Assembly: GCF_002803295.2 (NCBI RefSeq)
Contig: NZ_PGGB02000004.1
Location: forward strand, 40,842 to 50,514
DNA: 9,673 bases
Direction: 5' to 3'
Origin: Caedibacter taeniospiralis
GTDB lineage: Bacteria > Pseudomonadota > Gammaproteobacteria > Francisellales > Francisellaceae
In this document: piece by piece, positions 495 through 8,961 of the stretch
Position numbering within the stretch: position 1 is the first letter of the stretch
How the letters are laid out: each line of letters opens with the position of its first letter
Notes under the pieces: generated by a model
The model's input: only the letters and a program-made list of their open reading frames with translations
What the model was told of the DNA's origin: nothing
Databases searched by the model: none
Translations under genes and position numbers: made by a program

Positions 495-1799
495 ATGCAG
501 TTATCCAATGCAACTACATTTAATCTGCACTGCAGATATCTCTTTAATGATCTTAAGACTAAGGAGATAACAGAAGACGCTATAACTTATCACAAGTACT
601 TTGAACCCAAAGATAGTGCTAAATCTATTAAATTATTTGATAAGCTTAGAGATCAAGAAATTTCAGTCTATGAATTTTCTAGATCAGATGCAGAAAACGC
701 GTTAAAAATCTGTGATAAAAATTTTAATGACAACAACTTAACGCGTACATTGATTTCTTTTGAACCCAGGGTTGACGATGTCAGTAGCTTTATCTCAAAT
801 AACTCCGTGTCGTCAATGTTTTATAGTCTCACTAGCTCACTAAAAAACTTTGTAAAACAGGCTAACAAACCTGGCTTTCCTGTCGTGTTTAAAGATGATG
901 ATAATGATTATGTAAGGCTTGTTGAGTATATCGATTATGATGTTCTATTCTCTAATGAAGAGAAACTTCCTTTAGCAAAAATATACGAGTTTTTAAAAAA
1001 GGCAAAACAAGAAAACAGTGAAGATCTAATAATTAAAAGCTCAGTTAAATCCTTTGTTGATCGAGTGCTACAGAAGACCTATAGGCTCGTGACTGATAAA
1101 AATAAAGCAATGGAAGCATCCAAGTTTCTTCAGGCAGTTGACCTGTTCACTCAGGGCACATTGCAGGCAAAACTTGTCGGGAAAAACTTAGGTACGAAAT
1201 TGTATGCGACTAGTAGCTTTAATTCTCAGAATACATATCTTATTGATCACATGAACCTATTCCCCATGGGATACTGGGGAACAAATGCGCAGGATATTGT
1301 TCAGAACCCATCTTCGCTTATAATCAATGAGTTAATGGAGGTTGACTTATCACAACCAAGTAAATCCTATAAATTTGTCACCAACCTGGTGGTTAATTCA
1401 GTATTTATGTCACACATTGTGCCTGTAACTATTGCCGTTGATACTCAAAACTCACGTATCAAAGTAAAGATCGTGGATTCTATGTTAACCTCTTTTAATA
1501 GTGAAAAAAAGACAATTGCTGAAGCTTTAGTTAATGCGCTCATCAGCGGATTACCTGCACTGAAAAACTATAAGATCGATATTAACGTCGTTTATAGTAA
1601 ACTGCAGGTTGCAGGCACTGTTGATTGCGCCAGGTTTACTTCTATTGGAATGTTGGCTGAACTACTTGATATCGACTATGAAAACATGCCTCCACTTTTA
1701 GTATATAAGCTGTTGGATATGTATAGTCTGGATTCAAATAAAGAAAAAGGAGAAGTCTTGTACGGTGCCAAGACAGTGCTAACCATGTCAGGCAAGTAA
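495..1799 (+). CDS. CE-clan (Ulp1/SENP-like) cysteine protease family protein; candidate deubiquitinase / ubiquitin-like-protein protease or YopJ-type acetyltransferase, with an uncharacterised ~300-aa N-terminal region
   Basis: Long ORF ending at TAA 1797-1799. The ORF opens at TTG 474, and the first ATG is in frame at 495 (preferred, neither has a good SD). Numbered from 474: His314 (1413-1415) in FMSHIVPVTIAVD, Asp335 (1476-1478) in KIVDSML, Gln378 (1605-1607) and Cys385 (1626-1628) in KLQVAGTVDCARF. Order and spacing (H-21-D-43-Q-7-C) closely match yeast Ulp1 (H514, D531, Q574, C580), including the strand-turn-strand ...DS[LM] context and Q-x5/6-DC. Confidence 0.75.
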   Translation: MQLSNATTFNLHCRYLFNDLKTKEITEDAITYHKYFEPKDSAKSIKLFDKLRDQEISVYEFSRSDAENALKICDKNFNDNNLTRTLISFEPRVDDVSSFISNNSVSSMFYSLTSSLKNFVKQANKPGFPVVFKDDDNDYVRLVEYIDYDVLFSNEEKLPLAKIYEFLKKAKQENSEDLIIKSSVKSFVDRVLQKTYRLVTDKNKAMEASKFLQAVDLFTQGTLQAKLVGKNLGTKLYATSSFNSQNTYLIDHMNLFPMGYWGTNAQDIVQNPSSLIINELMEVDLSQPSKSYKFVTNLVVNSVFMSHIVPVTIAVDTQNSRIKVKIVDSMLTSFNSEKKTIAEALVNALISGLPALKNYKIDINVVYSKLQVAGTVDCARFTSIGMLAELLDIDYENMPPLLVYKLLDMYSLDSNKEKGEVLYGAKTVLTMSGK

Positions 1800-1876
1800 T
1801 ACTCTCTTTAAATTGTAACTAAACTTCCACTACTACCTGCTAAAGCACGTAGCTTAGAACACACTTGAAAAGCGGA

Positions 1877-1898
1877 TTGATTGCTGAAGCAACGTCAA
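1877..1898 (-). terminator. Weak candidate terminator hairpin in the convergent gap between the protease and regulator genes
   Basis: TTGATTGC-tgaa-GCAA(cg)TCAA forms an 8-bp stem with a 2-nt bulge. On the minus strand it is followed by tccgCTTTTc. The stem is AT-rich with a short T-run, so support is weak. A 4-bp CGCC/GGCG stem lies at 1907-1920. Confidence 0.2.
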
Positions 1899-1931
1899 CT
1901 GCTACTCGCCTTAAGGGGCGTTAGCCTGATT

Positions 1932-2696
1932 TTAGTGTGGTGATACAGTGAAATTATCATTGGTATGATGCTGCTTCTGATTCTCGGTATGCTGTTGTGC
2001 CTGGCTTTCATTCAAATACTCAAGGCGTGCACGAAACATGTAACCTGCCCTATTAATCGTTGTAATCAGGGGCTCCTCCGTTGACTCTATTGGCAGCTTT
2101 TTTCTAAGCTTACTGATCAATACATCAACGGTTCTGTCGAGTCCGTCATAGGGGCGACCGTAAACATACCAACATAGCTCATCTCTTGAGACAACCTGGT
2201 ATGGTTTATTGAGCAAAATACTTAGCGCTAAAAACTCAGACAATGTAAGCCGATGATGTTTACCTTTAATGTCCACTACACATTTACGCACTACATCTAA
2301 ACAAAAACCATTAAAAAAAACAGACTGAGGGCTTTTGTTACTCTTTCGTTTTAACCTTATGAGTGTTGAGCGTATCTTTGCAGCAACAATTTTAATATCT
2401 ACTTCGTGATGGATATAATCTGTAATGCCACATTCATACAGCTCTACTTCCCGATTTATATCGATTTTATCCCCAATGACCATGACGGTGATTACATACT
2501 TCTTATGGAGCTCTCTACACAAGTCAATGATTGAAATGCCTGAAATCTGGTAGGATAAAATCACAAAATCAATGGGTTGTACCATTAATGTCTTATCTAA
2601 CTGCAAGGGATTGTAACACCTGATAAAATGACACTCTTGTAGATAACGACCTAATTGATCTATATACCTTTTATCAATGCCTAATGTTAAAATCAA
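1932..2696 (-). CDS. Orphan OmpR/PhoB-family winged-helix transcriptional regulator with an aspartate-less (pseudo-)receiver domain
   Basis: The C-terminal half matches Trans_reg_C: LTLSEFLALSILLNKPYQVVSRDELCWYVYG...LDRTVDVLISKLRKKL...INRAGYMF. The N-terminal ~115 aa aligns position for position with the E. coli OmpR receiver, but the acidic pair is Gly6/Ile7, the phospho-acceptor Asp is Ser48 (codon 2553-2555, context DFVILSYQISG), the Thr is Ile74 and the Lys is His97. The only upstream start is TTG 2694-2696, with GGGAG immediately adjacent, so the start is uncertain. No histidine kinase gene is present in the window. Confidence 0.85.
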   Translation of the reverse strand: MILTLGIDKRYIDQLGRYLQECHFIRCYNPLQLDKTLMVQPIDFVILSYQISGISIIDLCRELHKKYVITVMVIGDKIDINREVELYECGITDYIHHEVDIKIVAAKIRSTLIRLKRKSNKSPQSVFFNGFCLDVVRKCVVDIKGKHHRLTLSEFLALSILLNKPYQVVSRDELCWYVYGRPYDGLDRTVDVLISKLRKKLPIESTEEPLITTINRAGYMFRARLEYLNESQAQQHTENQKQHHTNDNFTVSPH

Positions 2697-7467: not shown

Positions 7468-7473
7468 TCTCCT
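7468..7473 (-). promoter_or_regulatory. Shine-Dalgarno AGGAGA of the 976-aa gene
   Basis: The minus strand reads AATAGGAGAAAATTATGCCAAAT. Confidence 0.7.
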
Positions 7474-7691
7474 ATTACTCGATTTAATACTGATTTTTGC
7501 TCTTAATCAAAATTACTAAAATCAATGGCACCAAAATTTACTCTTCGATGCCCTTTAAGTTAAAAAATTAAACTCAACATTACAACATTTCATCTCTTTA
7601 TCGGACAGATTGATCAAATACAAACAAACCACTTCATCATTTAAGGTAGTGCCATTAATTCCATCATTATGTCCATACTTGCGGTTTTCCA

Positions 7692-7720
7692 TTGCCTTAG
7701 CCACTGTGGCTAGATATTTT
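7692..7720 (+). promoter_or_regulatory. Candidate sigma70-type promoter for the 401-aa membrane protein gene
   Basis: TTGCCT (7692-7697), N17, then TATTTT (7715-7720), ending 35 nt upstream of ATG 7756. Both hexamers are imperfect and were called by eye only. Confidence 0.3.
7698..7712. promoter_or_regulatory. Perfect 7-1-7 palindrome TAGCCAC-T-GTGGCTA; candidate operator
   Basis: Read directly. The arms 7698-7704 and 7706-7712 are exact reverse complements. The palindrome fills the spacer of the candidate promoter, 44-58 nt upstream of ATG 7756. Confidence 0.45.
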
Positions 7721-7755
7721 CACGGTCATAAACTTCATTACCATAGACATTGATT

Positions 7756-8961
7756 ATGCCGCTTTTCACTGATCTGCCCGAGAAATATCGCCGTAAGCCC
7801 ACCCTTGATTTTTGGCCTTTTTCATATCAAGGCTCAGTGAACTTACATTGGGAACGTGCGCTGTTAGAACTGGAAAACTTACATGATTTATCCTTTGAAT
7901 TTAAAGCCTTTCTACGCGCAAAATTCAACAGCAACAGTCAAACTGATATAAAGACGCTCAAAAAACTTGATCAACTTTTTCAATCAGCTTCCTTAGGAAC
8001 AACAGAAAAAATTGTCCATACCTATAGCTATTGTGTGGACTGGCTTAACCTGTTTCGTAACACTTATGAAATTTTGGCATTAAGCATCAAACCACTGGCG
8101 TTGCAGTTACCCTTTATCGGCTTAGCCTGGCAGGTATTTGATGCAACTATACTAACCACCATGGCCATTTATACTCGCCAAAAAGATGACAAATGGGCAA
8201 GCAATCATTATTCGTATACCGCTTCTCAATTGCTCCTTTGTAGTGGTCTTGCGCTTAGTGCTTTAATACTTGCTACTTGTAGTCTATTAAGTATTATGAG
8301 CACATTGGTTACTGCCATCGGCGGGATTACTGCATTAATTATTTCATGGGCGTTAAGTGAACGTGCTGCCAAGCTTTGTGATGCACGCATTGACTATTTA
8401 ATCCATGAAGAATTATCCATGCAAAAACTGCCGATCTTCACTGATGCTGACGCCGTATTAGAACTGCAAAATAGTTATCAAAAATGGCATGAAACAGTTC
8501 ATAAAGCTCAAAATAGTGAAGCAAGTTATAGAGCATTAATGACTGCACTACAGCATGCTGAAAAGCATCTTGAAGCTAATAAAAATAACAAAAATAATTT
8601 AGACGAGTATCATCAGGCAAAGCTGACATTAAGCTTATGCAAAAATCAAATGAAAAAACGTGAGTTTCTCTATCGCCTGGAAACACCACTTAATTTCTTA
8701 GCTGTCGCAGCAGTAGCATTAAGTGTCTTAGCACTGGTGTTATTCATTATTGGAGCCAATATGGCGACTTTTGGACTTGCCAGTGCTATATTTTGCTCAG
8801 CCATCGTTATTTTTAGCAGCATCTATAATCTGCATCAAAAAAATAAACTTTCCCACGATGAAGCTCACAGCAGTCATGAACAGGCTTCCAAAACCATATA
8901 CCCACACACATTATTCGACCCTCTGCCAAATAATATTTCACCAGCAGCTAACGTGACATGA
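7756..8961 (+). CDS. Hypothetical integral membrane protein with two ~45-aa bilobed hydrophobic domains separated by a polar helical segment (Inc-like architecture)
   Basis: The ORF opens at TTG 7750, and ATG 7756 is preferred (MPLFTDL...). The stop is TGA at 8959-8961. Numbered from 7750, the hydrophobic stretches are about 107-141, about 158-203 (nt 8221-8358, ASQLLLCSGLALSALILATCSLLSIMSTLVTAIGGITALIISWAL) and about 314-359 (nt 8689-8826, LNFLAVAAVALSVLALVLFIIGANMATFGLASAIFCSAIVIFSSIY). The tail is polar and rich in Pro/Ser/Asn: ...LFDPLPNNISPAANVT. Confidence 0.85.
   Translation: MPLFTDLPEKYRRKPTLDFWPFSYQGSVNLHWERALLELENLHDLSFEFKAFLRAKFNSNSQTDIKTLKKLDQLFQSASLGTTEKIVHTYSYCVDWLNLFRNTYEILALSIKPLALQLPFIGLAWQVFDATILTTMAIYTRQKDDKWASNHYSYTASQLLLCSGLALSALILATCSLLSIMSTLVTAIGGITALIISWALSERAAKLCDARIDYLIHEELSMQKLPIFTDADAVLELQNSYQKWHETVHKAQNSEASYRALMTALQHAEKHLEANKNNKNNLDEYHQAKLTLSLCKNQMKKREFLYRLETPLNFLAVAAVALSVLALVLFIIGANMATFGLASAIFCSAIVIFSSIYNLHQKNKLSHDEAHSSHEQASKTIYPHTLFDPLPNNISPAANVT

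Follow-up and report, generated by a model that had tools for sequence, protein, structure and literature searches.

A 9,673-nucleotide stretch of the Caedibacter taeniospiralis genome (contig NZ_PGGB02000004.1, 101.9 kb, positions 40,842 to 50,514; hereafter the window) carries five genes, termed O1 to O5, and appears, with what we would call moderate confidence, to belong to an island of effector-type genes that varies between strains and is arranged in the manner of Legionella regulator-effector islands. The match is drawn because a regulator gene is linked to the effector-type genes, gene content varies between species, the O4 family occurs only in genera that bear a Dot/Icm system, neighbouring genes resemble effectors, and O4 ends in an acidic tail. 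What can be read directly from the sequences is the gene architecture, the dead receiver domain of O2, the linkage of O5, O4 and O2, and the distribution of the O4 family. In Legionella, local regulators lie beside effector genes in islands that move horizontally, as seen with LciRS, RegK3, LelA/LelB/LelC and LexR1 (PMC12239595, PMC6989116). As in these islands, the regulator O2 stays linked to the effector-type genes O4 and O5 across two genera. Unlike them, the locus has a kinase-less OmpR-type regulator with a dead receiver where those islands have a two-component pair or a regulator of LuxR or LysR type, the bacteria that carry it are Fastidiosibacteraceae, and the regulation of the neighbouring genes is something that we infer. 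Judged from its sequence, the type of regulator, a kinase-less OmpR/PhoB protein, is the new feature relative to known islands, and the symbiont lineage that carries it has been little studied.

The window has a G+C content of about 38%, and its five predicted proteins are exact C. taeniospiralis RefSeq entries, from WP_100550362 (O1) down to WP_100550358 (O5). The five open reading frames listed in a preliminary description of this DNA are therefore all real, each being identical to an annotated protein. C. taeniospiralis is a "killer" endosymbiont of Paramecium. Its genome is reported to contain 12 type IV secretion genes, IcmE among them, and it is described as residing in the Paramecium cytoplasm, which its secreted proteins, most of them hypothetical, touch directly (PMC7297999). 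Besides the window we compared the Caedibacter or Caedibacter-like sequence sources L001 (GCA_031972495.1), L002, L003 and L011. In L002, genes for DotG(TrbI) and DotH/IcmK lie directly upstream of O1, identifying a type IVB system, and the organism is thus an intracellular symbiont with Dot/Icm genes. The second genus of interest, Cysteiniphilum, consists of culturable marine bacteria and is reported to carry icmO and related genes (PMC10228398).

The preliminary description made co-occurrence and conserved synteny of the five genes a test of its model. Three of the genes pass it and make up the conserved core of the island. The order O5(-)...O4(+)...O2(+) is kept in Cysteiniphilum QT6929, halobium, litorale and 19S12-1, with identities of 61-64% for O5, 53-55% for O4 and 42-44% for O2. 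There, O5 is divergent and lies about 6 kb 5' of O4, O2 lies 3-4 kb 3' of O4 on the same strand, and three to four further genes intervene on either side. Within Caedibacter, O5, O4 and O2 are linked in the window, in L001 and in L011. The remaining two fail it, O1 being confined to Caedibacter and O3 lying elsewhere in Cysteiniphilum and being deleted in some Caedibacter strains that keep O1 and O2. Since only three of the genes keep their order and orientation in related bacteria, the five do not form one conserved system, and from these comparisons O1 and O3 are lineage-specific, dispensable add-ons. Near the O4 paralogues of Cysteiniphilum and at eleven O4 loci of Legionella, none of the other four genes was found.

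The genes inserted in the Cysteiniphilum islands (L005 4432-18101 and L012 4150-17641) include one for a LepB_N-domain protein (4.5e-23). The same islands encode a Fic-like protein, which in QT6929 is split into pieces of 193 and 224 amino acids (aa), and a 290-355 aa protein with hydrophobic helices like those of the O4 N-terminus. The position of O3 is taken by a coiled-coil protein of 425 aa that carries a Gly/Ala hairpin at its C-terminal end; its architecture is like that of O3, its sequence is not. An OTU-like reading of a 458-aa Cysteiniphilum protein, made by eye from its Cys and His motifs, was set aside, as neither Pfam nor the PDB supported it.

The regulator O2 has an output domain that matches Trans_reg_C (Pfam PF00486) at E 3.9e-17, with 62.5 bits against a cutoff of 26.2, and 61 relatives in the PDB, while its receiver stays below the Response_reg threshold (21.5 bits against 30.2). 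Receiver residues were read from HMMER alignments to RegX3, BaeR and MtrA and from a multiple alignment with canonical Cysteiniphilum and Legionella response regulators. The acidic pair DD is replaced by Gly-Ile, the phospho-acceptor Asp by Ser48 (codon 2553-2555), the Thr by Ile and the Lys by His, and the identical set of losses is present in the four Cysteiniphilum orthologues. With these residues lost, O2 must act without a kinase; the window contains no kinase gene, and in Cysteiniphilum a canonical pair of response regulator and histidine kinase lies elsewhere. The alignments across two genera thus bear out the phosphorylation-independent OmpR-type regulator of the preliminary description, and they argue convincingly that O2 is an atypical member of the OmpR/PhoB family.

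Known atypical, phosphorylation-independent OmpR/PhoB regulators are ChxR of Chlamydia and HP1043 (HsrA) of Helicobacter; the PDB entry 2HQR, which O2 matches at E 1.2e-4, we take to be HP1043. Like these, O2 has a winged-helix output domain, its receiver-like domain is missing the phospho-acceptor Asp, and it is found in a host-associated bacterium. Unlike them, O2 and its Cysteiniphilum orthologues form a separate clade, in which four of five signature residues are lost and identity to the canonical response regulators of the same genomes is about 30%. In L001 (2283-3125), O2 is 243 aa long owing to a frame change near the 3' end, from either gene decay or an assembly error. A Legionella metagenome-assembled genome (L024 2521-3135) has an OmpR-family regulator, 28% identical to O2, that stands divergently beside an O4 homologue.

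The family of O4 comprises proteins from Caedibacter, Cysteiniphilum (44-57% identity), several Legionella species (27-32%) and two metagenome contigs, and was found nowhere else. It is restricted to Dot/Icm-bearing genera, in which it is patchily distributed and has paralogues. In an AlphaFold2 (AF2) model of O4 made from a 12-sequence alignment, residues 375-925 form a large all-helical C-terminal domain with a predicted local distance difference test (pLDDT) score of about 80-88. A Foldseek search of the PDB with this model returned nothing with E below 0.06.

Among strains O4 is a mosaic. Comparison of window 4592-6265 with L011 1088-4096 and L001 4961-7951 showed that codons ~400-957 of O4 (4592-6265) have only 60-87% nucleotide identity to L011, against 97-100% in the flanks, O5, O2 and intergenic DNA, and that L001 carries a different patchwork. 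Synonymous divergence (dS) in the polymorphic stretch is 0.3-1.1 and the ratio of non-synonymous to synonymous divergence (dN/dS) is 0.2-0.6. These values indicate alleles that were imported and had long diverged, not locally mutated ones. By this comparison, at least three O4 allele lineages undergo recombination while the background is almost clonal, which is what a host-facing protein would be expected to show. In the first ~97 codons of O4, dN exceeds dS, on few changes.

O4 ends in a tail of about 35 residues (4535-4640), with 7-10 Asp or Glu among the last 35 residues across Fastidiosibacteraceae. Motifs common to Caedibacter and Cysteiniphilum in this tail are E[VI]FY, [VI]YE[DE] and [WY][EN][LFI][VI]..F, and a match to the iLIR-type pattern for an LC3-interacting region (LIR) lies at aa 956. 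The tail motif could be Atg8-interacting (LIR-like), or a piece of a Glu-rich Dot/Icm signal. The C-terminal tails of O1, O3 and O5 are unremarkable.

Chlamydial Inc proteins and transmembrane Dot/Icm effectors have bilobed hydrophobic hairpins. In Kyte-Doolittle scans, O3 has one bilobed hydrophobic segment at aa 413-466 (nucleotides (nt) 3034-3195; 43% Gly+Ala) with a GGIPG turn. O4 has a segment at aa 293-337 (nt 6452-6586; 33% Gly+Ala) and a weak one at aa 75-131. O5 has segments at aa 106-124, 154-202 (nt 8215-8361) and 308-359 (nt 8677-8832), with 20-23% Gly+Ala, a helical linker between the two long hairpins and a hydropathy maximum of 3.08. The Gly/Ala-rich hairpins described earlier for all three proteins were thus recovered as bilobed segments of 45-55 residues, none of them N-terminal, but O5 is not especially rich in Gly and Ala. 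No sequence similarity was detected among O3, O4 and O5, in agreement with the earlier view that they have an architecture in common, not a sequence. The segment length, the lack of a signal peptide and the helical or coiled-coil flanks are all as in Inc proteins and these effectors. The three have no sequence relationship to either, and the symbiont is reported to be cytoplasmic, not vacuolar (PMC7297999).

O5 diverges from the O4/O3 pair, as had been described. Its putative promoter reads TTGCCT-17-TATTTT, and the 17-nt spacer is occupied by a perfect 15-bp palindrome, TAGCCACTGTGGCTA (7698-7712), 43 bp 5' of O5; the expected count of perfect 7+7 palindromes is about 0.02 per 293 bp. The -35/-10 blocks and an upstream ATCAnnnTGTCCATA block are common to four Cysteiniphilum species, and the palindrome is not. 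The palindromic operator proposed upstream of this gene is thus present as a sequence, and we regard it as a candidate. In L001 (8245-9038), O5 is called as two pieces of 117 and 157 aa, from gene decay or an assembly error. As for O3, its sole homologue is a Cysteiniphilum protein of 38% identity, encoded away from the island and adjacent to the genes of a complete two-component system. In L002 (6121-6363) and L011 (4232-4474) O3 is an 80-aa N-terminal stub left by a deletion of about 1.2 kb (window ~3010-4200) that takes out the hairpin, and 311-aa forms are also on record. O3 is an accessory, strain-variable gene.

O1 had been called a CE-clan protease. A cysteine-protease motif and a weak structural match to RavZ speak for this, sequence and profile searches gave it no support, and we put the chance that O1 has a Ulp/RavZ-like cysteine-protease fold slightly above even. 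The candidate catalytic residues are His307 (1413-1415), Asp328 (1476-1478), Gln371 (1605-1607) and Cys378 (1626-1628), in the context S-H307-IVPVTIAVD...IKVKIV-D328-S, 43 residues, Q371-VAGTVD-C378-ARF. Their order and spacing are those of clan CE, and they are invariant in four strain variants. A tight form of the motif, SH-x21-VDS-x43-Q-x6-DCARF, written post hoc as a regular expression, matched none of 20,000 shuffles of O1 and, among 97 background open reading frames, only the O1 homologue; a loose H-D-Q-C pattern is present in 6% of shuffles. Foldseek was run against the PDB with a single-sequence AlphaFold (AF2) model of O1 of pLDDT 40. The top eight hits were RavZ chains (E 3.8e-3 to 2.6e-2, probability 0.92-0.99), and the YopJ-family protein AvrA ranked 45th.

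RavZ (Lpg1683), the Atg8/LC3-phosphatidylethanolamine (PE) deconjugase of L. pneumophila, has a catalytic domain of Ulp-type fold with the triad H176/D197/C258 (PMC5388539). O1 has the same His...Asp...Cys order with an identical His-Asp spacing of 21, and comparable surroundings (SHIVPVTIAVD...VDS in O1 and QHQVLLTISYD...YDS in RavZ; DCARFT and NCGSYTF). Unlike in RavZ, the catalytic region would be C-terminal, following an unrelated N-terminal half of 230 aa, and O1 lacks the C-terminal domain that binds phosphatidylinositol 3-phosphate, an iLIR-type LIR and significant sequence similarity. The protein ends with the putative catalytic region, with no domain after it, and nothing in its sequence was found to resemble RavZ aa 329-423. 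By eye, O1 shows two acidic Yxx[LV] motifs at aa 137-151, but they do not conform to the iLIR pattern. Compared with Ulp1/SENP (MEROPS C48, clan CE), the arrangement H-21-D-43-Q-7-C of O1 is close to H-17-D-43-Q-6-C of Ulp1, but O1 has no Peptidase_C48 match, and its profile score lies within the null. From the motif and the model, an identity as a protease for ubiquitin-like proteins is possible.

Sequence searches with O1 were negative throughout. Outside C. taeniospiralis no homologue was found among 5.8 billion and 1.84 billion proteins. The exhaustive search of the 1.84 billion gave a single non-self match, P0024 (E 1.5e-8), a PKD/dockerin surface protein in which three near-identical beta-sandwich repeats each weakly match O1 aa 257-315; the match was discounted because these repeats were taken to inflate the E-value. 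Pfam (Peptidase_C48 included) and NCBIfam gave no match, nor did phmmer against PDB sequences with full-length O1 or its C-terminal 193 aa. A hidden Markov model (HMM) of Ulp1 and SENP1 scored O1 at -1.1 bits, equalled or beaten by 866 of 2000 shuffles, hhalign of O1 with Ulp1/SENP1 gave a probability of 0.3%, and BLASTP and Smith-Waterman alignment with RavZ stayed at chance level. The reference sequences had been verified against 1EUV and 2IYC (Ulp1, SENP1) and 5IO3 (RavZ).

O1 aa 117-194 (843-1076) weakly resembles O4 aa 145-229 (6776-7030), with a pairwise BLASTP E of 2e-5. An HMM of the O4 segment gave O1 9.7 bits, which 6 of 3000 shuffles also attained, and hhalign an E of 0.36. The segment is the most conserved part of the O4 family, FQxQL..GF...L..FIRLFHYRESLLFGK. 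A module common to O1 and O4 is possible but unproven.

The surroundings of O1 differ between strains. O1 has 434 aa in the window and 450 in other strains (16 residues more; starts MARLLNKIPHLLFGLAVMQLS / MARLLNKIPHLLFG...), and the DNA upstream of it (241-472) cannot be aligned with L001 574-834, L002 3270-3650 or L003 500-880, homology beginning at about 472, where a breakpoint falls inside the 5' end of O1. As this upstream DNA is unrelated and the O1 of other strains is longer, the native start and promoter of O1 have been lost at a rearrangement junction. The left neighbour comes in three versions, Lipase_3-like in the window, WipA_Phos-like in L001 and L003, and Usp-like together with DotH/DotG in L002. 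Between the window and L001 or L002, O1 shows 14 non-synonymous and 3-4 synonymous differences, a ratio (pN/pS) of about 0.9-1.2, compared with 0.14-0.40 for O2, O3 and O5.

The promoter element that the preliminary description saw upstream of both O1 and O2 proved no better than chance, and it sits in the strain-specific DNA at 241-472. The words common to the two upstream regions, CACACTTAG (346, 2792), ATAGTCAC (369, 2829) and TCTAATG, are collinear. Local alignments of the two regions, with strict and with lenient gap costs, nevertheless score within shuffles and below other segments of the window, and counts of CACACT and ATAGTCAC are not above chance. The O3-O2 intergenic region contains a terminator-like hairpin (2834-2851) and, upstream of O2, a nested inverted repeat, GCATTCTtctgataAGAATttcatTAGAATGC (2849-2880), and a direct repeat, CAATTGAtttCAATTGA (CAATTGA-N3-CAATTGA, 10-bp spacing; 2884-2899). 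Neither repeat differs among the Caedibacter sources, and Cysteiniphilum has neither; the CAATTGA repeat was considered as an O2 binding site and dropped, being present in Caedibacter only.

The coordinates of the features are collected in Table 1. In the left flank, the truncated lipase-like gene may belong to the wider island, because a Cysteiniphilum JM-1 relative (374 aa; Pfam Lipase_3 3.7e-23) lies directly 5' of an O4 paralogue (L017 8725-12592). Downstream of O5, the long hairpin has arms GGTGGATAAGC...GCTTATCCACC and an inner pair GCGCATCCAC/GGTGGATGTGC, and folds at -48.6 kcal/mol (z -5.7; 0 of 200 shuffles as stable); it has no Rfam match and no copy in the compared loci. Rfam and tRNA scans of the whole window gave no match, and no plasmid homologues of O5 or O1 were found.

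Table 1. Genes and other features of the window, in order of position. Strand cells are empty where none applies.
Feature	Position	Strand	Description
3' end of class-3-lipase-like gene (left flank)	1-240	+	44% identity over 79 aa to JM-1 protein
Strain-specific junction DNA 5' of O1	241-472		CACACT cluster and hairpin 309-351, palindrome 389-406
O1	495-1799	+	434 aa; candidate RavZ/Ulp-fold cysteine protease
Putative catalytic region of O1, aa ~240-434	1212-1799	+	Motif and weak structure-model match
O2	1932-2696	-	254 aa; OmpR/PhoB-type winged-helix regulator, degenerate receiver
O3-O2 intergenic region, presumed O2 promoter	2697-2955	-	99-100% identical in four Caedibacter sources
O3	2956-4431	-	491 aa; helical, one C-terminal Gly/Ala-rich hairpin
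O4	4532-7462	-	976 aa; N-terminal membrane hairpins, all-helical C-terminal domain, acidic disordered tail
Divergent O4/O5 control region	7463-7755		99% identical among strains
O5	7756-8961	+	401 aa; membrane protein, two long hairpins
Long imperfect hairpin, ~85 nt, just 3' of O5, resembling a repetitive extragenic palindrome or miniature inverted-repeat transposable element	9003-9088	+	RNA fold
5' part of AAA-ATPase_like (PDDEXK_9-type) gene (right flank)	9181-9673	+	Pfam AAA-ATPase_like 7.5e-26

In a regulator-effector island, O2 would act constitutively or under the control of a ligand or partner, without a kinase, and would control the promoters of the neighbouring genes. O4, and probably O5 and O3, would be exported by the type IVB system, their hairpins inserting into host membranes. 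O1, if active, would act on a host ubiquitin-like conjugate, for which the resemblance to RavZ makes Atg8-PE our best guess. Several observations weigh against this interpretation. In Cysteiniphilum the regulator is separated from O4 by 3-4 kb and three to four genes, and the Legionella O4 homologues lack a regulator of this kind in their vicinity. Apart from the putative -35/-10 blocks of O5, we found no motif that recurs in the upstream regions of O1, O2, O3 and O4/O5 or is conserved between the genera. The hydrophobicity of the O5 hairpins would also fit an ordinary bacterial inner-membrane protein. As regards O1, sequence methods are all at chance, the evidence for its fold leans on a model of pLDDT 40 and on a single PDB protein, RavZ, and the gene may be decaying, given a pN/pS near 1 and the loss of its native start and promoter.

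The main rival, which we consider unlikely, is that O3, O4 and O5 belong to the inner membrane of the bacterium itself, for example with a membrane-shaping or envelope-stress role and a dynamin-like stalk or paddle in O4, that O2 is their local regulator, and that nothing is exported. It would suit the highly hydrophobic hairpins, those of O5 above all, the retention of the O5 promoter blocks across genera, and a Cysteiniphilum that grows in culture as a marine bacterium (PMC10228398). It also finds a foothold in O4 itself, of which aa 202-412, hairpin included, weakly match the C-terminal, paddle-containing part of the dynamin-like LeoBC (PADLOC profile PDLC03841; E 4.5e-6), with 6 of 12 family members matching; the PADLOC defence-system scan gave nothing else. 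Unlike LeoBC, however, O4 has no GTPase domain (by Pfam) and no P-loop. The match may reflect hydrophobic composition, and neither PDB sequences nor folds support it. The patchy O4 family with its paralogues, confined to Dot/Icm genera, the effector-like neighbour genes, and the mosaic O4 alleles with their suggestion of host-facing selection also argue against purely bacterial membrane proteins.

Next in rank, and rather improbable, is the view that the window holds no functional unit, its genes being unrelated neighbours in a rearrangement-prone, decaying genome, with O2 having its targets elsewhere, or none, and with O1 and O3 turning into pseudogenes. O1, with its near-neutral pN/pS, its replaced 5' end and its three different left flanks, would be expected on this view, as would the truncation of O3 in several sources, the split O5 and changed O2 frame of L001, and the lack of a common cis-element. 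Yet two genera have kept the order and orientation of O5, O4 and O2 although synonymous divergence is saturated (dS > 1), O2, O3 and O5 have low pN/pS values, and strains agree at 99-100% in the intergenic control regions.

Within the regulator-effector interpretation, a more specific scenario is that the island helps an endosymbiont in the cytoplasm of a ciliate to counter autophagy, by means of a highly diverged RavZ-type O1, a hairpin-anchored O4 and an O2 that sets their expression. The LIR-like tail motif of O4, together with the RavZ resemblance of O1, allows such a scenario, which we nonetheless regard as a long shot. O1 would strip lipidated Atg8 off host membranes, the tail motif [WY][EN][LFI][VI]..F of a translocated O4 would act as an LIR-like element, and the mosaicism of O4 would be the trace of an arms race with Paramecium.

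Least probable by our reckoning, and highly so, is the five-gene module of the preliminary description, in which the three membrane proteins sit in a membrane derived from the host, a CE-clan protease acts on ubiquitin-like modifications carried by them or found nearby, and the regulator times all. In its favour, the genes are adjacent in the window strain and in L001, a RavZ/Ulp-like fold is possible for O1, and O1 and O4 weakly resemble each other. Against it, O1 is absent from every other genome with O4, O5 and O2, O3 is unlinked in Cysteiniphilum and deleted in L002, which retains O1, strains do not agree in the left flank and promoter of O1, the promoter element lacks significance, the similarity of O1 and O4 finds no support from hhalign, and the symbiont is described as cytoplasmic (PMC7297999), so that a vacuole membrane is no obvious target. 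We found no functional connection between the protease and the membrane proteins. The pairing proposed by analogy with LupA, a CE-clan effector of Legionella, and LegC3, whose genes are unlinked, fails on co-occurrence, O1 being absent wherever homologues of O3, O4 or O5 occur outside C. taeniospiralis, and there is no evidence for a meta-effector partner of O1. For the original idea the message is negative: the five genes are not a conserved system.

The locus supplies candidates, namely an effector family (O4) that also occurs in Legionella and Cysteiniphilum, a conserved kinase-less OmpR-type regulator linked to it, and a possible RavZ-like protease. They bear on the persistence of Caedibacter in the Paramecium cytoplasm and on type IVB cargo, and Cysteiniphilum is an emerging human pathogen. 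If the anti-autophagy scenario were true, RavZ-like activity would for the first time be known outside Legionella, and there would be a handle on unenclosed persistence in the cytoplasm. If O2 regulates O4 and O5, the principle of effector islands with their own local regulator would reach another order, and with a new type of regulator.

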